Sequence record: NC_054915.1 | DNA from: Escherichia phage vB_EcoM_G8 | Reading direction: 5' to 3' (one strand) | DNA: 64,000 bases | Shown: positions 3,889-18,197 of the stretch, piece by piece | How positions within the stretch are numbered: position 1 is the first letter of the stretch | Layout of the letters: each line of letters opens with the position of its first letter | Notes under the pieces: generated by a model | Seen by the model: only the letters and a program-made list of their open reading frames with translations | Databases searched by the model: none | Told to the model about the DNA's origin: nothing | Program-made: the position numbers and the translations under genes

Positions 3889-4569
3889 TTATTTTAATGT
3901 TACGAAAGAAGAGTTGCGTGTTTCACGAATTAAAACTGATCCATCACGATTAATGTAATAAATTAAGCTAAATAAAGTTTGGTGTGCTGACGCATGCTCA
4001 AAACTAGTTGGGTGAGATTTCCAATCCGGAGTTTCAGCTATCCATTGATAAATCCACCAAGGAACAGTGCAGAATCCTGGATTTTTTCCAATCAGCTGAA
4101 GATTCGGACTAAAGTTTTCCGGAAGAGTAAATACAGACGGCTTTTCAGATTCAATAATCTCAGCTACAGCCTGTTCAAATTTTTCTTCAACAAAAGGAGT
4201 ATCTTCAATCAAAACTGAGGTATTTTCAGGAATTTTATCCGTTTCTACTACTTCAATTTTAATGTCAGATTTAACCGGAGAATCAATCAGAAGTGCTGCT
4301 TCTGGATTGACTTCTTCATCGTCATATTTTAATCCCTCTGCGGCATCAGCAGCATCAATTAAGTCTTTAATAGATAACCCATCAGTCTCTGGCATAGGTT
4401 CACTAGCGAGCTTCTGGAGGGCTTCTTCAATATCATTAACGATATTATCAAAAGATTTATTCTTTTTGACCTTTATACCAAACTGTTCAGCATATTCAGC
4501 TAATTTAGCTTTAGCTTCTTTGTTATCATCAAGAGCCTTCAGCTCTGCAATATAATCTTTATCTATCAT
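3889..4569 (-). CDS. inh: Inhibitor of prohead protease Inh
   Basis: 226-aa ORF, same size and position as T4 inh. Confidence 0.8.
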   Translation of the reverse strand: MIDKDYIAELKALDDNKEAKAKLAEYAEQFGIKVKKNKSFDNIVNDIEEALQKLASEPMPETDGLSIKDLIDAADAAEGLKYDDEEVNPEAALLIDSPVKSDIKIEVVETDKIPENTSVLIEDTPFVEEKFEQAVAEIIESEKPSVFTLPENFSPNLQLIGKNPGFCTVPWWIYQWIAETPDWKSHPTSFEHASAHQTLFSLIYYINRDGSVLIRETRNSSFVTLK

Positions 4570-4582
4570 AATATTTCCTCAG

Positions 4583-4590
4583 TATAAATA
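4583..4590 (+). promoter_or_regulatory. T4 late promoter box TATAAATA upstream of uvsW
   Basis: Exact TATAAATA about 30 nt upstream of the uvsW ATG. Confidence 0.5.
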
Positions 4591-4619
4591 TAGATATATT
4601 TATTACATGGTATTTAGAC

Positions 4620-6131
4620 ATGACTGACATTAAAGTACATTTTTATGATTTTAGTCACGTGAGAATTGATTGTGAAGAAAGTACATTTCATGAACTCCGT
4701 GATTTCTTTAGCTTTGAAGCTGATGGGTATCGTTTTAATCCGAAGTACAGATATGGCCACTGGGATGGACGAATCCGTCTTTTAGATTATAATCGACTTC
4801 TTCCATTCGGCTTAGTCGGGCAAATTAAAAAGTTCTGTGATAACTTTGGCTATAAAGCCTGGATTGACCCACAAATTAACGAAAAAGAAGAATTATCAAG
4901 AAAAGATTTTGATGAATGGCTTTCTAAATTAGAAATCTATTCAGGAAATAAAAGAATTGAACCACATTGGTATCAAAAAGATGCAGTGTTCGAAGGATTA
5001 GTTAATCGTCGTAGAATTCTTAATCTTCCAACATCCGCTGGTAAATCGTTAATTCAAGCTTTGCTTGCGCGATATTATTTGGAAAATTATGAAGGTAAAA
5101 TTCTTATCATTGTTCCAACAACTGCTCTGACAACTCAGATGGCTGATGACTTCGTCGACTATCGTTTATTCAGCCATGCAATGATAAAGAAAATTGGTGG
5201 CGGAGCATCAAAAGATGATAAATATAAAAATGATGCACCAGTCGTTGTTGGTACATGGCAAACTGTAGTAAAACAACCGAAAGAATGGTTCTCACAGTTT
5301 GGAATGATGATGAATGATGAATGCCATCTTGCTACAGGAAAAAGTATTTCATCTATCATATCAGGTTTAAATAACTGCATGTTCAAATTCGGTTTGTCTG
5401 GTTCATTACGTGATGGCAAAGCCAATATCATGCAGTATGTTGGAATGTTTGGTGAAATATTTAAGCCAGTAACGACTTCTAAGTTAATGGAAGATGGACA
5501 AGTAACTGAGCTAAAAATTAATAGTATTTTTCTTCGCTATCCCGATGAGTTCACTACTAAATTAAAGGGAAAAACTTATCAAGAAGAAATAAAAATTATT
5601 ACTGGGCTTAGTAAAAGAAATAAATGGATCGCTAAATTAGCTATTAAGCTTGCACAAAAAGATGAAAACGCTTTTGTCATGTTTAAACATGTATCGCATG
5701 GTAAAGCTATTTTCGATTTAATTAAAAATGAATACGATAAAGTTTATTACGTATCAGGGGAAGTTGATACCGAAACCCGCAACGTAATGAAAACTTTAGC
5801 TGAAAACGGTAAAGGAATAATTATAGTAGCGAGTTATGGTGTATTTTCTACTGGTATTTCAGTTAAAAATCTGCATCACGTTGTTTTAGCGCATGGTGTT
5901 AAATCAAAAATCATTGTATTACAAACAATCGGTCGTGTATTACGTAAGCATGGTTCTAAGACAATAGCAACGGTCTGGGACCTCATAGATGACGCGGGCG
6001 TAGTTTCTAAATCAAAAACATCTTCTAAAAAATACTCGCATTTAAACTATCTTTTAAAACATGGACTTGATCGTATTCAGCGTTATGCTGATGAAAAGTT
6101 TAATTATGTGATGAAAGAGGTTAAACTTTGA
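4620..6131 (+). CDS. uvsW: UvsW DNA/RNA helicase (SF2)
   Basis: 503-aa ORF, N-terminus MTDIKVHFYDFSHVRIDCEE..., Walker A-like PTSAGKS and DECH box (MMMNDECH). Confidence 0.92.
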   Translation: MTDIKVHFYDFSHVRIDCEESTFHELRDFFSFEADGYRFNPKYRYGHWDGRIRLLDYNRLLPFGLVGQIKKFCDNFGYKAWIDPQINEKEELSRKDFDEWLSKLEIYSGNKRIEPHWYQKDAVFEGLVNRRRILNLPTSAGKSLIQALLARYYLENYEGKILIIVPTTALTTQMADDFVDYRLFSHAMIKKIGGGASKDDKYKNDAPVVVGTWQTVVKQPKEWFSQFGMMMNDECHLATGKSISSIISGLNNCMFKFGLSGSLRDGKANIMQYVGMFGEIFKPVTTSKLMEDGQVTELKINSIFLRYPDEFTTKLKGKTYQEEIKIITGLSKRNKWIAKLAIKLAQKDENAFVMFKHVSHGKAIFDLIKNEYDKVYYVSGEVDTETRNVMKTLAENGKGIIIVASYGVFSTGISVKNLHHVVLAHGVKSKIIVLQTIGRVLRKHGSKTIATVWDLIDDAGVVSKSKTSSKKYSHLNYLLKHGLDRIQRYADEKFNYVMKEVKL

Positions 6132-6820
6132 ATTATAAATTAATATATGATAATTTAATTAATAGAGCCCAGAATCGGGCTCGCCTTAATGGATACACTG
6201 AAACACATCATATAATTCCTAGATGTATGGGTGGTACAAATGATAAGTGTAATTTAGTAGAACTAACGGCTGAAGAACATTTTATAGCCCATAAACTTTT
6301 AGCTAAAATTCATCCAAACCATTACGGTATAATTAAAGCTGTTATATGTATGGGGATGAATTCAAATACTCATGAAAGACACGTCAATAAATCTTACGCA
6401 TGGGAACGTCGTAAAATGGCAGAACTTCAATCCGGCGAAGGTAATCCATTTTACGGAAAACACCATACGGAAGAACATAAACAATATATGTCAAAACTCA
6501 TGAAAAGTCGTCCAATTACATGGGGAAATAAAATTAGTAAAACTAAAAGAATGAACCCAACGAAATGGACTGAAGAAGCTAAAAGATTACATTCAATCAA
6601 TCAATCGGGTAAAAATAACGGCATGTATGGAAGGAAACATTCCGCTAAATCTATTCAGAAAATTAAAGATAACATGCCAGATAATTCAGGAGCTAATAAC
6701 CCAGCTGCTAAACCTATAGAAGTAAATGGTGTTAAGTATAAATGTATGAAAGATGCTTCTAAAGCTACTGGATTATCAATGTACAAACTAAGAATACTTA
6801 GAAAAACAGTCAATTTATAA
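6128..6820 (+). CDS. HNH-family homing endonuclease with NUMOD3-like repeats; apparent TTG start overlapping the uvsW stop
   Basis: HNH motif ETHHIIPRCMGGTNDKCNLVELTAEEHFIAH; three repeats of the form G-x-x-N-P/G-x-YGK/R-x-H-x(3-4)-K; GAGG about 9 nt upstream of TTG. Confidence 0.78.
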   Translation: MNYKLIYDNLINRAQNRARLNGYTETHHIIPRCMGGTNDKCNLVELTAEEHFIAHKLLAKIHPNHYGIIKAVICMGMNSNTHERHVNKSYAWERRKMAELQSGEGNPFYGKHHTEEHKQYMSKLMKSRPITWGNKISKTKRMNPTKWTEEAKRLHSINQSGKNNGMYGRKHSAKSIQKIKDNMPDNSGANNPAAKPIEVNGVKYKCMKDASKATGLSMYKLRILRKTVNL

Positions 6821-6835
6821 GGGCTTCGGCCCTTT
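6821..6835 (+). terminator. Hairpin GGGCTTCGGCCC followed by TTT between the HNH ORF and uvsW.1
   Basis: Inverted repeat with UUCG loop read in sequence. Confidence 0.4.
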
Positions 6836-7076
6836 GGAGAAAAAGATGTTACTAAAATTTAAACAATTTCTTTATGAAGCTTCTATTGATGAATTTATGG
6901 GTAAAATTGCCTCTTGTCAAACATTAGAAGGTTTAGAAGAACTTGAAGCTTATTACAAGAAAAGAGTCAAAGAAACTGAATTAAAAGATACTGATGACAT
7001 CTCTGTGAGAGATGCTTTGGCAGGAAAAAGAGCTGAATTAGAAGATTCAGACGATGAAGTAGAAGAAAGCTTTTAA
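6834..7076 (+). CDS. uvsW.1: UvsW.1-like small acidic protein
   Basis: 80-aa ORF with RBS GGAGAAAAAG; in T4 the uvsW.1 product lies immediately after uvsW. Confidence 0.7.
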   Translation: MEKKMLLKFKQFLYEASIDEFMGKIASCQTLEGLEELEAYYKKRVKETELKDTDDISVRDALAGKRAELEDSDDEVEESF

Positions 7077-7132
7077 ATTAAAAAAAGGCCCAACCAAAAA
7101 GGAAGGGCCAAAACTATAGACTAAAGGTCACA

Positions 7133-7300
7133 CTATAGCAAAAGTTGTGTTTCATTTAATTGTTCTTCCGAACTTTCTGAAACTGGTAGTTCTTTAATGT
7201 AATTATAGCAAGGCCCAGGATGTACAGGACCTTTGTCTGTTTCAACAACCAATGCAGAATCGATTGGAGTTTTACAGACAACACAAATCTTATCTGACAT
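7133..7300 (-). CDS. Small Cys-containing hypothetical protein (55 aa; below the ORF-track length cutoff)
   Basis: Manual translation MSDKICVVCKTPIDSALVVETDKGPVHPGPCYNYIKELPVSESSEEQLNETQLLL; strong RBS GAGGAG upstream; coordinates +/-2. Confidence 0.45.
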   Translation of the reverse strand: MSDKICVVCKTPIDSALVVETDKGPVHPGPCYNYIKELPVSESSEEQLNETQLLL

Positions 7301-7328
7301 GATTGTCTCCTCTGAATTATATATCTAT

Positions 7329-7553
7329 TTATACAACTCTCATATGCATATCAATGCCCATATCTTTAGAATAAAAATATTCATCAAGATATCCGGCAAA
7401 TTTTCCTTTAATATAAAGGACATCTTCACCACACGGGTGGTCGGCCAGGATACGAATATCCTGACGCTTAAGATTATGCTTTTTCATTAAGAATTGAATT
7501 TCCGTTTCAAATTCTTCTTCATAATTAAAAGCATCATCAATGCTATATTTCAT
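7329..7553 (-). CDS. Conserved hypothetical protein upstream-region partner of uvsY
   Basis: 74-aa ORF whose start overlaps the uvsY stop (ATGA-type coupling). Confidence 0.6.
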   Translation of the reverse strand: MKYSIDDAFNYEEEFETEIQFLMKKHNLKRQDIRILADHPCGEDVLYIKGKFAGYLDEYFYSKDMGIDMHMRVV

Positions 7554-7966
7554 TATTTTCCAGCCTCAAATGCTCGCATGTCTTGAATATGCTTAATAGC
7601 AAATCCACGTGATTTAATAGCATCAAGAGCTCCGCTACAGAAATCTAATAAAATTCCCCAATATTGTAATGAAGTATCAACCTTTAAAACATCCTTATCA
7701 GCTGATAAAACTGTCTTCATTTCTGATTTCTCGTAACGATCCATACTAAATTCATCACCATCTCCTCGTCCCGAGTAGTAGTCTAATCTAGCTTTAAGAG
7801 CAACTTTTTTCTGTGCGTCAATTCTAAGCATTTCCTTTTTAATACTTGAATGCTTATTAAGCCATTTACTATATAACATCACATTATTAGCTGCTTCATA
7901 CTGTAATTTAGTCGAATCTATAAACACATCTTTCTTCAATTCTTCTTGAAGATCTTCTAATCTCAT
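7553..7966 (-). CDS. uvsY: UvsY recombination mediator
   Basis: 137-aa ORF, same length as T4 UvsY; N-terminus MRLEDLQEELKKDVF... Confidence 0.92.
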   Translation of the reverse strand: MRLEDLQEELKKDVFIDSTKLQYEAANNVMLYSKWLNKHSSIKKEMLRIDAQKKVALKARLDYYSGRGDGDEFSMDRYEKSEMKTVLSADKDVLKVDTSLQYWGILLDFCSGALDAIKSRGFAIKHIQDMRAFEAGK

Positions 7967-8032
7967 ATTGTTCTCTATTCAATTGTTATTGGATGGACTT
8001 AGATTCATTATACCACGTTTTAACGTGAAGCA

Positions 8033-8431
8033 TTATACCCTATTACTCGAAGCCAGTTGCAGTTTTATCTGCTCAATATCATCAGGGTTATCGATGACCG
8101 AAAAGCGTATTTCTACTATCAGAGTATAATCATCATAAACTGGTATTACATTAACTGATAATTTATCAATACGTGGCTCATAGTTTCTTACTGCGCTTTC
8201 GATATTGCGCTCAACTGTGTCAGCAGTAAGAGGAGTCATATTCTCAAAAAGCTGGTCTGATAAATCACATCCAAATTCAGGGTCAAACGGTCTTGAACCT
8301 TTTCTTGTTGTAATAATTCCCAAAAGACTGTTTTTAATTGACCTTAATCCAAGTGATCTGGAAACATCTTTGTTCCAATCCATTTTCATTTCCGGGTCAA
8401 TGTCAGAATAAAGCTTATTAATATTTGCCAT
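8033..8431 (-). CDS. 25: Baseplate wedge protein gp25
   Basis: 132-aa ORF, size and synteny as T4 gp25. Confidence 0.9.
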   Translation of the reverse strand: MANINKLYSDIDPEMKMDWNKDVSRSLGLRSIKNSLLGIITTRKGSRPFDPEFGCDLSDQLFENMTPLTADTVERNIESAVRNYEPRIDKLSVNVIPVYDDYTLIVEIRFSVIDNPDDIEQIKLQLASSNRV

Positions 8432-9057
8432 TATAGTAACTCAAAGAACTCTTTGAGGCCTCTTATTACGTGAGCATGGGTTTTTCCACACTCTGGACAC
8501 TTAATTGGAACAGCCAAATAAACGGTAGGTTTTAAAAGCATATCTTTTATAGCTACAATATCTGACTCTGTGATGATAGAATATAAATCTTCTAGTTCCT
8601 TTTCATTTAAGTCTTCAACTGGAATGCTTTCCCCGTTAGCATGAATCGTTTCTATACATGATACTATCATGTGGGCTATATTTTTATCATCAAAAATTTT
8701 AGGGTATCGTAATTTAATTTTAATGTCACCCAGTGTATACCAGAGGTCTTCTGGTGCATCTATTTGTGTGTGTAATAGATTTATATGGGTTGGTATTTCA
8801 GTTCCACAGGTGCACTTCCAGGAGTTTTCGTGATTAACTTCGCCGAGAGAATGTGCCCATAAATGAATCAACAATAGTTCTGATTCTTGGCGGTTTAAAT
8901 CTTTTGCATTTGTGCAGTCTTTGATTAGCTTTTTAACAACTACTTCTACTGAACCATTATTTTTGGCAGTAATAAGTTCTAGATATTCTTTAAGCGTGAA
9001 TGCGCGACAATTGATTATTTTAGAACCAACTCTCACATCAAATTTGTATTCATACAT
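8431..9057 (-). CDS. 26: Baseplate hub protein gp26
   Basis: 208-aa ORF, size and synteny as T4 gp26. Confidence 0.88.
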
Positions 9058-14438: not shown

Positions 14439-15361
14439 TGTATTCTTTAGAGGAATTTAATAATCAAGCAATAAACGCAGATTTCCAACGTAATAATATG
14501 TTTAGCTGCGTTTTTGCAACAACTCCATCAACTAAAAGCTCTTCGTTGATAAGTTCAATTAGCAACTTTTCTTATAATAACTTGGGCCTAAATTCAAATT
14601 GGTTAGGATTAACTCAAGGTGATATTAATCAGGGAATTACCACGCTAATTACAGCTGGCACACAAAAACTAATAAGAAAATCAGGAGTCAGTAAATATCT
14701 TATTGGTGCCATGAGTCAACGTACTGTCCAGAGTTTATTAGGATCATTTACAGTCGGTACATATTTAATCGATTTCTTTAATATGGCGTATAATTCATCT
14801 GGATTGATGATATATTCTGTAAAAATGCCAGAGAATAGATTATCCTATGAAACTGACTGGAACTATAATTCTCCTAATATTCGTATAACTGGGAGAGAAT
14901 TAGACCCTTTGGTTATTTCATTTAGAATGGATTCAGAAGCTTGTAACTATCGTGCAATGCAAGACTGGGTTAACTCCGTTCAAGACCCAGTAACTGGACT
15001 ACGTGCTTTGCCGCAAGATGTCGAGGCAGATATTCAGGTTAATCTTCATTCTCGTAATGGATTGCCTCATACTGCGGTGATGTTCACCGGATGCATTCCA
15101 ATATCAGTGAGCGCTCCTGAGTTATCATATGATGGAGATAACCAAATAACTACATTTGATGTTACTTTTGCGTATAGAGTGATGCAGGCTGGAGCAGTTG
15201 ATAGGCAAGCTGCGCTTGAATGGCTTGAATCTGCTGCTATAAATGGTATTCAAAGCGTTCTCGGAAATAGTGGAGGTGTTACTGGACTATCTAATTCGCT
15301 TTCACGACTCAGTAGACTAGGAGGAACCTCAGGAAGCATTTCAAATATTAGTATACTATGA
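14438..15361 (+). CDS. 54: Baseplate tail-tube initiator gp54
   Basis: 307-aa ORF, synteny with T4 gene 54 (T4 protein is about 320 aa by my recollection). Confidence 0.85.
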   Translation: MYSLEEFNNQAINADFQRNNMFSCVFATTPSTKSSSLISSISNFSYNNLGLNSNWLGLTQGDINQGITTLITAGTQKLIRKSGVSKYLIGAMSQRTVQSLLGSFTVGTYLIDFFNMAYNSSGLMIYSVKMPENRLSYETDWNYNSPNIRITGRELDPLVISFRMDSEACNYRAMQDWVNSVQDPVTGLRALPQDVEADIQVNLHSRNGLPHTAVMFTGCIPISVSAPELSYDGDNQITTFDVTFAYRVMQAGAVDRQAALEWLESAAINGIQSVLGNSGGVTGLSNSLSRLSRLGGTSGSISNISIL

Positions 15362-15402
15362 CAGGGATTGTCAATTCGCAGAGTAAAATATTAGGAGCAA
15401 TA

Positions 15403-15433
15403 TAACAACGGGGACCTTTCGGTCCCCATATTT
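15403..15433 (+). terminator. Hairpin GGGGACC-TTTC-GGTCCCC followed by ATATTTTTATTT
   Basis: Perfect 7-bp stem and U-run downstream of gene 54. Confidence 0.65.
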
Positions 15434-15724
15434 TTATTTGCGGAATGAAATGAAAGCAGAAACTGAAGCAACTAAACTGTCTTCAATATAAACTTCAATT
15501 TTTACCGGAGCTTCTGACTCAAATTTACCTGTTACTACACCCTGAAAAATACTTTCAGTCTGTTCTGGCTTTGAAAAATTTTCAGAAGGAAAAATTCCAA
15601 ACTTTTTATCTGTTCCGAAAATTTTGATAAATTCATCATAAACTGCTTCATTAAAAGCATTATCAGCAGGAATAACGCCTTCAACTACAAGTTCTTGACC
15701 TAAAAAGCGTAAAGAAGATTTCAT
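15434..15724 (-). CDS. Conserved hypothetical protein (alt-upstream region ORF)
   Basis: 96-aa ORF downstream of alt on the minus strand. Confidence 0.55.
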   Translation of the reverse strand: MKSSLRFLGQELVVEGVIPADNAFNEAVYDEFIKIFGTDKKFGIFPSENFSKPEQTESIFQGVVTGKFESEAPVKIEVYIEDSLVASVSAFISFRK

Positions 15725-15732
15725 TTTGTGTT

Positions 15733-15790
15733 CCTCATGTTATGTCAGTAAGACTACTATAACACAACACGAGGGACTTGTAAACTACAT
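15733..15790 (-). promoter_or_regulatory. T4 early-type promoter cassette (GTTTAC -35, about 17-nt spacer, TATAGT -10) - copy 1 of a 2-copy repeat
   Basis: Minus strand reads GTTTACAAGTCCCTCGTGTTGTGTTATAGTAGTCTTACTGACATAACATGAGG; near-identical copy at 28160-28225. Confidence 0.5.
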
Positions 15791-15960
15791 TTTGAACTTT
15801 TTAGTACGCGTAATAGGCATGCGTCGATTTTATACTGTTTCATTGTTTGAAGAGCAGTATCAAAAACAGCATTAATGACACCAATTGGATTTCCACCCAA
15901 GTTTTTAAGCTTAACTAATGATAGTTTCTCATTAACACCTATCATTACGATATGCATCAT
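15757..15960 (-). CDS. Alt N-terminal paralog, downstream fragment (67 aa)
   Basis: Translation MMHIV...TALQTMKQYKIDACLLRVLKS aligns to Alt residues about 63-130 (MMHIVPFTL...VAMQTMRQYKIDACMLRILKS). Confidence 0.5.
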   Translation of the reverse strand: MMHIVMIGVNEKLSLVKLKNLGGNPIGVINAVFDTALQTMKQYKIDACLLRVLKSSKCSLQVPRVVL

Positions 15961-16142
15961 TTTATCGCCCGGCTTAACGTTTTATTCGTATCACCGCCAG
16001 AGGTGTATGTACAAAATCTAAATCCAGGAAGCACGCTTTCTTCGCCGGCTTGAATAGCAAAAATTTGTGGTATTTTATGCTTAGGATTTAAGTTAACAGC
16101 CGGCGCCGAAGCGCCGTCAAATAATTCTGTAATAAGTTCCAT
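15957..16142 (-). CDS. Alt N-terminal paralog, upstream fragment (61 aa)
   Basis: Translation MELITELFDGASAPAVNLNPKHKIPQIF...CTYTSGGDTN aligns to Alt residues 2-55; out of frame with the downstream fragment. Confidence 0.5.
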   Translation of the reverse strand: MELITELFDGASAPAVNLNPKHKIPQIFAIQAGEESVLPGFRFCTYTSGGDTNKTLSRAIK

Positions 16143-16145
16143 GAT

Positions 16146-18197
16146 TTATCCTTGAACGAACTTGTAAGGCATGTTTGCAATATCTATGCAAGACGCAATA
16201 ATTCCAAGAGATGATTCTACTTTCTGTTTAACATTTGATGAAACAAATGATGCAAAGTCAACTCTATCTTCTATATCACCTGTCATTGTAACCAATTCAC
16301 CAGTTTCCATTAAACGGTCACCGTCATAAATTACCGATTCGGTGAGTTCTTCTGTGGTCATAACTTCAGCTTGAATAAGCTTGTTGTTAGTTCTAACTGT
16401 TCCATCGTTGTAAGATGCATCGGTTATTTTATTAACTTTGACCATTAATCCACGTGGCAAAATGACTTCCATTTCATTTGAAGGCGCTAAACTTCCACCG
16501 GGTAAAACAACATTGACCTTATCAGCCCCAGTAATAACCCATCCAATTCCAACTAAATTATCACTAGAATTTACAAGTCCTTCATCAGTTTTATCAATAG
16601 AAACACTTAAACGCTTTTCGTCTGGTAAAACACCCACAGATGAATCAGTCATCCAAGTACCAAAAATATTTGGATATAATGATGTTGACACAAAGTTTCT
16701 AAAATAAAAAACTCGATTTTTTACCATTGCTTCATATATTGAAGGTAACATTCGTTGTGAACGATACAAAGTAATACCTTTTGGTAATCGTTCACCATTT
16801 TTAAAGGCTGAATCTAAATTATCAATGGCTTGTTCTATTTCAGGTGCTGTTAAAATACTTGTACGCTCATCTGGATTATATAATCCCAAAAGAGCATTAT
16901 TCATGTCTACATATCCTGAACCTACATATTCACGAATTCCGCGTTTTTGCGCTGGTGTGTATTTAGATGAATCTTTATTTTCGACTATAGGATGTAATGA
17001 CCATCCAGCGGTAAGAGCATATCCACGTAATTCTCTTCGAATAATCTTTGTTTTTATTGCATTCCAAGAATTTTGTACTAACTCATTTGCAGCATCTTGG
17101 TTTAAATGCGAATGTCTGTTAATATTTCTTTCAAACCAAGCACCTTTATATTTTTCTAAAGTATCATCAACTATAGAAGCAATAGTTTCTAAAGTTTTTA
17201 TTGAAGTAATAGATTCTTTTCGTAATCTTTCTAAAGCTTTATTTTTTATTTCTGCATTAATAATGGATTCTTTATCTTCAGGAATTATAGAAGCTTCTCT
17301 GAATGCCATTCCAGCTGTAACACTACTAAGAGCATTCTCTAATGCAAATCCTGAAGTAGAAATAACAGTTAATTCATTAGCGTCAGAAATTAAAGGAGCG
17401 TCCGCTGGTTTATTTAATTCTGCCGCTGAAGCCTCAAATTTTTGAAACATCGGTGTTTCAAATCTAGAAGATTCCAATGACTGACTTTGTGCAATTGCTC
17501 TACGGGAAATTTTAACTTTAACGATTACAGCTTGGTCAGAACGTTTATCATTTTCTTGTGCAATAGATGCTGCAATTGCCTCATTTTTAGTTACTTGAGC
17601 TCCAGTATCTTTATTGATATAAACATCACCGACCTTCGATTCAACTTTAGTAAAGAGCTCGGTACTAATTTCCGGAACCCCTGGAATGTCTTCTAGTGAT
17701 ACATTTTTGCGATGTATAAGAATATATGCATACTTTTTATCATAATCCCAGAGTTCCTTAAGAAGGACGTATCTGCCACCTGAACGACTACGGATAAGTC
17801 TATCAGCAATAACTTGAATTTGTCGAGCTTGACCGGCGGTTTTAGACTTAAGAATACGAAGCATACAAGCATCAATTTTATACTGACGCATTGTTTGCAT
17901 TGCAACAGTAAAAACCGAATTGATATAATTAATTGGGCTTGGACCAAGACCTTTCAATTTAGCAATTGAACCTTTAGCGGTTAATGTAAAAGGAACAATA
18001 TGCATCATTTTATCGCCCATCTTTAAATCACGATTAGTATCACCTCCAGATGTATAGGTACATAAACGAAAGCCTGGTTGTTCAATTGCGTCATCAACAT
18101 GAACTGAAAAAATTTGCGGTATTTTCTTCTTTGGATTTAAGTTTGTAATCGGAAGAGTAGTATCTTCGTCAAATAATTCTGTAATTAGTTCCATCAT
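16146..18197 (-). CDS. alt: Alt ADP-ribosyltransferase (packaged internal protein)
   Basis: 683-aa ORF, size and synteny as T4 alt (about 682 aa). Confidence 0.9.
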   Translation of the reverse strand: MMELITELFDEDTTLPITNLNPKKKIPQIFSVHVDDAIEQPGFRLCTYTSGGDTNRDLKMGDKMMHIVPFTLTAKGSIAKLKGLGPSPINYINSVFTVAMQTMRQYKIDACMLRILKSKTAGQARQIQVIADRLIRSRSGGRYVLLKELWDYDKKYAYILIHRKNVSLEDIPGVPEISTELFTKVESKVGDVYINKDTGAQVTKNEAIAASIAQENDKRSDQAVIVKVKISRRAIAQSQSLESSRFETPMFQKFEASAAELNKPADAPLISDANELTVISTSGFALENALSSVTAGMAFREASIIPEDKESIINAEIKNKALERLRKESITSIKTLETIASIVDDTLEKYKGAWFERNINRHSHLNQDAANELVQNSWNAIKTKIIRRELRGYALTAGWSLHPIVENKDSSKYTPAQKRGIREYVGSGYVDMNNALLGLYNPDERTSILTAPEIEQAIDNLDSAFKNGERLPKGITLYRSQRMLPSIYEAMVKNRVFYFRNFVSTSLYPNIFGTWMTDSSVGVLPDEKRLSVSIDKTDEGLVNSSDNLVGIGWVITGADKVNVVLPGGSLAPSNEMEVILPRGLMVKVNKITDASYNDGTVRTNNKLIQAEVMTTEELTESVIYDGDRLMETGELVTMTGDIEDRVDFASFVSSNVKQKVESSLGIIASCIDIANMPYKFVQG

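Follow-up and report, generated by a model that had tools for sequence, protein, structure and literature searches.

Two Short ORFs between alt and alt.-3

Directly downstream of alt, the genome of Escherichia phage vB_EcoM_G8 (sequence record NC_054915.1) carries two short, overlapping open reading frames that recall the beginning of Alt in two different frames. This arrangement raises the question of whether the two ORFs are a pair of small genes, a damaged partial copy of alt, or what is left of some other gene. The locus was analyzed in the window, i.e. the whole stretch of 64,000 nucleotides under study, and compared with its counterparts in related phages. The region, named alt.-1/alt.-2 in T4, is very probably a non-functional, decaying pseudogene of a second alt-like ADP-ribosyltransferase gene; homology, two lesions, distribution among relatives, loss of constraint, and absence of the domain were all observed directly. 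The features of the locus are collected in Table 1.

Table 1. Features of the alt to alt.-3 region in the window
Feature	Position	Strand	Size	Description
alt	16146-18197	minus	683 aa	ORF from first ATG; functional first paralog, full-length Alt ADP-ribosyltransferase; annotated alt in T4 and e11/2
Shine-Dalgarno-like AAGGA	16149-16153	minus		6 nt 5' of the alt.-1 ATG; overlaps the last alt codons; read by eye
alt.-1 (ORF1)	15957-16142	minus	61 aa, 186 nt	Starts 4 nt past the alt stop; codons 1-53 of the former second alt paralog, then 8 out-of-frame codons (KTLSRAIK) and TGA
Frameshift site	15980-15983	minus		AAAA in the window, AAAAA in intact paralogs and some remnants; 1-nt homopolymer deletion
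alt.-2 (ORF2)	15757-15960	minus	67 aa, 204 nt	ATG overlaps the ORF1 TGA (ATGA); from the paralog's internal Met-Met (codons 62-63) to codon 116, then 12 out-of-frame codons past the junction
Deletion junction	15796-15804	minus	9 bp	Sole surviving copy of the direct repeat CTAAAAAGT
Original TAG stop of second alt paralog	15785-15787	minus		Now out of frame within alt.-2; RB3_194 ends at the homologous position
Promoter-like site	15756-15784	minus		TTTACA-17-TATAGT; overlaps the last codons and stop of alt.-2
alt.-3	15434-15724	minus	96 aa	DUF5498 protein (PF17602, E = 5e-64); intact downstream gene
Bidirectional hairpin terminator	15408-15429			Between alt.-3 and gene 54; end of the alt/alt.-1/alt.-2/alt.-3 transcription unit

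Pfam placed the PF03496 match of the window Alt at aa 375-615 (E = 1.3e-33). The out-of-frame tail of alt.-2 crosses the old paralog TAG (15787-15785) and ends at the TAG at 15759-15757. Terminators are annotated at the same place in e11/2, and gene 54 (baseplate) is the convergent neighbor beyond the hairpin. Tryptic peptides predicted for Alt.-1 and Alt.-2 include, as examples, IPQIFAIQAGEESVLPGFR, LSLVK, and NLGGNPIGVINAVFDTALQTMK.

Likeness to the Adjacent Alt

In protein alignments, ORF1 matched Alt residues 2-58 (36 of 57 identical, E = 2e-23) and ORF2 matched residues 64-118 (34 of 55 identical, E = 2e-21). The resemblance to Alt is far above chance. The initial annotation had described the ORFs as reproducing the first about 130 residues of Alt in different frames; its coordinates were exact, and the homology and the frames are real, but the span comes to about 118 residues. 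ORF2 starts at offset 182 from the ATG of ORF1 and is therefore in frame +2/-1, in agreement with the +2 frame originally given. Identity to the adjacent alt amounts to only about 62% at the protein and 72% at the DNA level, so the remnant cannot have been copied from alt recently. The same holds against T4 Alt, the packaged NAD+:arginine ADP-ribosyltransferase: its N-terminal 118 residues, including the MELITE propeptide-like start, are homologous to the remnant (about 62%), which lacks the catalytic domain and is a paralog, not a copy.

A Full-length Second alt Paralog as the Parent Gene

Phage RB3 carries an intact Alt-like gene of 2058 bp (685 aa) between alt and alt.-3. BLASTN of the window against RB3 returned two collinear matches. 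One covers the 3' end of alt and the first 348 nt of the paralog with 96.3% identity; the other covers the last 20 nt of the paralog, the spacer, and alt.-3 with 96.6% identity. Where they meet, the two matches have 9 nt in common, CTAAAAAGT (window 15804-15796). RB3 carries this 9-mer on either side of the missing segment, at a spacing of 1699 bp, a pattern typical of deletions that arise between short direct repeats. Five of the eight intact copies that were compared have it at offsets 339 and 2038. The 1699 bp lost in the window correspond to codons 117 to about 682 and include the ART domain, which Pfam located at aa 416-620 of the RB3 paralog (PF03496). In line with this, alt.-1, alt.-2, and the 128-aa form found in phage AV121 gave no domain match in Pfam; the ART catalytic domain (PF03496, ADPrib_exo_Tox) is absent from them.

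Within the first RB3 match there is only one gap. A single base is missing from an A-run, which reads GAATAAAAACG in RB3 and GAATAAAACG in the window (A5 to A4, 15980-15983). The decay by frameshift that the initial annotation had proposed is thus borne out as a 1-nt loss relative to the intact RB3 paralog.

The gene of the RB3 type (RB3_194, RB51ORF198, and "alt.-2" of ime09; 685 aa, "Alt-like RNA polymerase ADP-ribosyltransferase") in Tequatrovirus is the parent of the remnant. Both share 96% identity over the retained 5' (348 nt) and 3' (20 nt) ends, and they have the ribosome-binding site, the downstream promoter, and alt.-3 in common, whereas the window copy is frameshifted and without the 1699 bp that include the PF03496 ART domain. 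The AAGGA preceding alt.-1 originally served the second alt paralog as its ribosome-binding site, and the same bases stand 5' of the intact second copy in RB3. The two intact Alt paralogs are 44% identical over their whole length. We also asked whether alt.-3 might be what remains of the C terminus of the lost paralog and rejected the idea, as alt.-3 is a separate DUF5498 gene that also lies 3' of the intact paralog. In the extracted RB3 region (L004), alt occupies positions 4504-6597 and RB3_194 positions 6601-8658; homologs of RB3_194 are present in loci L018-L022.

These findings suggest the following course of events. In the lineage of T4, e11/2, and the window, a deletion of 1699 bp between two copies of CTAAAAAGT removed codons 117 to about 682 together with the whole catalytic domain and left behind a stump of 128 codons, a state that AV121 still shows. 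A later loss of 1 nt in the A5 run shifted the frame, and the stump then terminates at a TGA overlapping the internal Met-Met codons of the parent. The deletion was likely the earlier event, giving an AV121-like state, with the small lesions following afterwards.

Distribution and States of Decay among Relatives

With the RB3 paralog as query, 402 of 498 matching phage records contained it at full length, and the rest matched at the two ends only. The remnant arrangement of the window was matched end to end by 89 records. Thus, the gene order alt, 685-aa alt paralog, alt.-3 is the usual one in Tequatrovirus, and laboratory T4 is without an Alt-like ADP-ribosyltransferase found in about 80% of the T4 relatives that have been sequenced. 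No report on the function or targets of the second Alt-like paralog was found in the literature searched; functionally, the intact gene is of greater interest than the remnant.

Base-level comparison comprised the window and 19 further remnant carriers (20 of about 89) as well as eight intact copies, mostly from the GenBank phage collection, from which 22 regions were taken; a scan of IMG/VR with Alt.-3 yielded 4 loci. Short-query BLAST was not used to class all of the about 89 carriers, as nearby SNPs would confound the identity bands. The record spans among the end-to-end matches (1001, 1002, 1000, and 992 nt) define length classes that agree with the lesions of the 20 genomes sampled.

The junction of the 1699-bp deletion was common to all 20 remnants. 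The form with two ORFs of 61 and 67 aa was present in seven of them: the window, e11/2, T4, T4T, one IMG/VR contig, HMD-9, and TB004. In 12 of the 20, codon 6 of alt.-1 had changed from GAA to TAA, abolishing alt.-1. These 12 include three genomes with an extra 1-nt deletion in a T-run that shortens alt.-2 to 39 aa (235Ecol030PP, CE1, and PD112), one with a 9-bp deletion (F1), and one in which the alt.-2 stop codon is lost (PTE-Eco15). AV121 alone carries the deletion in unshifted form, with a single ORF of 128 aa, and keeps GAA at codon 6. Among the 20 carriers, the state of codon 6 and that of the A-run (A4 or A5) occurred in all four possible combinations, pointing to recombination among these phages or to recurrent slippage in the A-run. 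The 67-aa alt.-2 ORF was intact in 16 of the 20, a figure to be read in the light of the 97-99% identity of the carrier genomes, which implies that little time has elapsed. At window position 16098, codon 15 of alt.-1 reads GCT versus GTT in e11/2 (V15A); this is the single base of the remnant that differs from the deposited e11/2 sequence, and none of the other genomes compared had the change.

Selective Constraint

Across the 116 codons that intact copies and remnants have in common, the eight intact copies differed by 35 synonymous variants and one non-synonymous variant (K80R), giving a crude omega of about 0.008, where the counts, here and for the remnants, are of variant types and not of tree-based events. 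This indicates strong purifying selection on the N-terminal region of the intact paralog. Among variants found only in remnants, 7 were synonymous and 9 non-synonymous, with the nonsense codon counted among the latter (Fisher p = 2.7e-5 versus the intact copies). In the alt.-1 part, 4 were synonymous and 6 non-synonymous; in the alt.-2 part, the numbers were 1 and 3. Constraint is clearly relaxed in the remnants. The crude omega of the remnant-only variants was about 0.36 and not 1; synonymous polymorphisms that entered from unsampled intact copies via recombination may account for this value.

According to the initial annotation, a two-ORF arrangement conserved across the T-even phages with purifying selection on both ORFs would have spoken for a stable gene pair. 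The arrangement is kept by seven of the 20 carriers, with 9 non-synonymous and 7 synonymous changes, and the reading as a decaying copy therefore stands. Likewise, conservation of both ORFs together with their junction under purifying selection, by which a coupled gene pair or a programmed frameshift would be recognized, was not found.

Transcription and the Promoter of alt.-3

The promoter-like site at the 3' end of the stump matches in 10 of 12 positions. A preceding G completes GTTTAC, the T4 early -35 motif, and a TG stands before the -10 element. The bases are kept in RB3 and in all remnants; in RB3, GTTTAC overlaps the stop codon of the paralog. Judged from these motifs and from the early class of the T4 alt.-3 RNA and protein, the site at 15756-15784 is probably the early promoter of alt.-3. 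Between the end of the deletion and the GTTTAC -35 motif downstream of it lie 17 nt. Longer deletions may have been selected against because alt.-3 expression would depend on this site, and the alt.-3 promoter is presumably the only selected element within the stump. In pSe_SNUABM_01, the -10 hexamer of alt.-3 is the consensus TATAAT and not TATAGT. That alt.-3 is a genuine gene is shown by T4 mutants in which its product has a C-terminal extension and which escape the CmdTAC defense system (PMC11618068).

Time-resolved omics of T4 (PMC9697503, Table S2) detected alt.-1 and alt.-2 RNA, assigned to the class "middle," and did not detect the Alt.-1 and Alt.-2 proteins in the whole-cell proteome, although non-detection of proteins of 6-7 kDa by proteomics is weak negative evidence. 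In the same data set, alt.-3 was early at the RNA and protein levels, and alt was late. A MotA-box middle promoter was not evident by eye 5' of alt.-1, and the "middle" class of the T4 alt.-1/alt.-2 RNA may stem from read-through. Given its place within the alt to alt.-3 unit, the remnant DNA would still be transcribed. From the ribosome-binding site of the parent, alt.-1 may be translated into a short-lived, functionless peptide of 61 aa.

Alternative Explanations

Several other explanations of the locus were weighed. Alt.-1 (61 aa) and Alt.-2 (67 aa) could form a stable pair of small proteins, both of them made, Alt.-2 by termination-reinitiation at the ATGA, and serving a function of their own, for example through entry of Alt.-1 into the prohead by way of its Alt-like N terminus. 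A good Shine-Dalgarno sequence and ATG for alt.-1, the ATGA overlap, the retention of MELITE with its I-x-E gp21-type motif, and the detection of RNA in T4 are in keeping with such a pair, which had also been put forward in the initial annotation as two small proteins made by coupling. However, a nonsense change at codon 6 has inactivated alt.-1 in 12 of 20 carriers and three have a shortened alt.-2, non-synonymous changes outnumber synonymous ones among the remnant-only variants by 6 to 4 in alt.-1 and by 3 to 1 in alt.-2, neither protein was detected by T4 proteomics, and the targeting invoked has been shown for IPIII, whereas the N-terminal propeptide of Alt is known as a cleaved one. The overlap itself is accounted for by the parent gene. 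A new ORF appears to begin at MMHIV with an ATGA overlap because the TGA is formed by the conserved K-M-M codons of the parent (AAA ATG ATG), and ORF callers report a "coupled" second ORF because the post-shift TGA overlaps these Met-Met codons; the ATGA is thus an accidental by-product. Taken together, a functional gene pair appears unlikely. A programmed -1 ribosomal frameshift, for instance by slippage of tRNA-Lys on A-AAA before the TGA, would fuse alt.-1 and alt.-2 into a product of about 128 aa. It would fit with the -1 frame of alt.-2, with the sequence ATA AAA TGA, in which A-AAA precedes the stop codon, and with the unshifted 128-aa ORF of AV121. There is, however, no canonical X-XXY-YYZ heptamer, the motif is the coding sequence for G-D-K-M-M and is conserved in alt as well, 12 of 20 carriers have lost the upstream ORF, the product would be without a domain, and a stimulatory structure is not needed to explain the data. 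We give this explanation hardly any credence.

A partial tandem duplication of the adjacent 5' part of alt, followed by a frameshift, had been proposed in the initial annotation and is also the view taken in a note of the older T4 record AF158101. The ORFs do resemble the first 118 residues of Alt. Against this, identity is 96% to the full-length RB3 paralog versus 72% to alt, the 3' end runs exactly into the last 20 nt of the paralog and the spacer across the 9-bp repeat junction, and the full-length form is the majority state (402 of 498 records). The ancestor was a full-length, diverged second paralog, 44% identical to alt, from which 1699 bp between the 9-bp repeats were lost, and a partial duplication is very improbable. 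An artifact of sequencing or assembly, by which a 1-nt indel would disguise a stump that is truly a single ORF, might be suspected since homopolymer runs are error-prone. Yet A4 is present in T4 (AF158101), T4T, e11/2, the IMG/VR contig, HMD-9, TB004, and others, all independently sequenced, and an unshifted gene would still lack 566 codons. The probability of such an error is negligible.

Capsid Targeting of Alt.-1

The start of Alt.-1, MELITE/LFD, is identical to the N terminus of Alt and contains an I-x-E gp21-type cleavage motif. Alt.-1 thereby conforms to the (L/I)-x-E gp21 cleavage motif that ends the short N-terminal propeptide of the CTS-type proteins packaged into the T4 prohead. The gp21 protease cleaves a propeptide of 7 residues from the N terminus of Alt, which is processed at its C terminus too (PMC9026906). 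A capsid targeting sequence has been demonstrated for IPIII and inferred for other internal proteins. The statement in the initial annotation that the N terminus of Alt is an established packaging signal therefore went too far: in the literature, targeting is on record for IPIII, and what is documented for Alt is cleavage of the propeptide by gp21.

It is conceivable that Alt.-1 (61 aa), or the unshifted 128-aa form in AV121-like phages, is made and enters the prohead core through its Alt-like N terminus and the gp21-cleavable MELITE, where it would serve as a small peptide of the head interior or compete with Alt and so tune the number of Alt copies packaged. We regard this as quite unlikely. 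Any role in the capsid is dispensable, since 12 of the 20 carriers have lost alt.-1 through the change at codon 6.

Previous Records and Related Systems

Over positions 15400-16400, the window shares 99.9% identity with Escherichia phage e11/2 (vB_EcoM_112) and 97.5% with T4. The alt.-1/alt.-2 region of T4 (GenBank AF158101 and HM137666; UniProt P39495 and P39494) occupies the same site between alt and alt.-3 on the same strand, its ORFs have the same lengths (186 and 204 nt), and the deletion junction, the A4 frameshift, and the ATGA overlap are all as in the window, with DNA identity of 97.5-98%. There are few point differences from T4; V15A is private to the window relative to e11/2 and T4. 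The comparison with alt and with the T4 region that the initial annotation had recommended thus gave the same position, ORFs, junction, and A4 shift.

A note in the T4T record explains alt.-1 and alt.-2 by a deletion and then a frameshift in the second copy of gene alt. The reference T4 record AF158101 states that the first part of gene alt was duplicated and that a stop codon entered, and in a Yersinia phage record the region is flagged "putative pseudogene." Nolan et al. 2006 (PMC1524935) listed alt.-1 and alt.-2 among paralogous alt duplications. Given these GenBank notes, the paper, and the pseudogene flag, the finding is not new: the remnant is real and highly significant, but it has already been annotated and explained. 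RB49ORF183c and 44RRORF187c and 188c are likewise paralogous duplicates next to alt, and Nolan et al. 2006 (PMC1524935) noted that not all such copies are complete; they belong to distantly related phages, and the events appear to be independent of the T4-type remnant.

In T4-type genomes, alt.-1 and alt.-2 are better annotated as one pseudogene than as two hypothetical proteins. The locus neatly illustrates how a gene of a model phage can die: a deletion between 9-bp repeats that spared the promoter of the neighboring gene was followed by independent small lesions.

Observations on Neighboring Genes

The alt gene itself varies in an uneven manner. Between the window Alt and the first Alt of RB3, identity is about 100% for residues 1-250 and 92-94% at the C terminus; for residues about 251-600, which include the ART domain, it drops to 27-63%. 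In tblastn searches, Alt identities fell into bands, with 173 records at ≥90%, 321 at 60-80%, and 1 at 80-90%, a pattern that fits two allele classes. The allele is sharply mosaic, which suggests cassette-like exchange or diversifying selection on the catalytic or target-binding part.

At the 3' end of gene 54 (window positions about 15345-15361, plus strand), the window has 2 bp more than T4, RB3, and fPS-2 (ATTAGTATACT versus ATTA--ATACT), an insertion that shifts the frame, so that gp54 has 307 aa in the window versus 321 aa (966-nt gene) in T4. The shorter gene 54 of 924 nt is also annotated in e11/2, F1, SG1, and BYEP01. The terminator hairpin at 15408-15429, read on the plus strand, is GGGGACC-TTTC-GGTCCCC in the window and in fPS-2, and GGGGACC-GAAA-GGTCCCC in T4T and RB3. 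Its loop is polymorphic by inversion, which resembles a hairpin-loop flip such as template switching produces.
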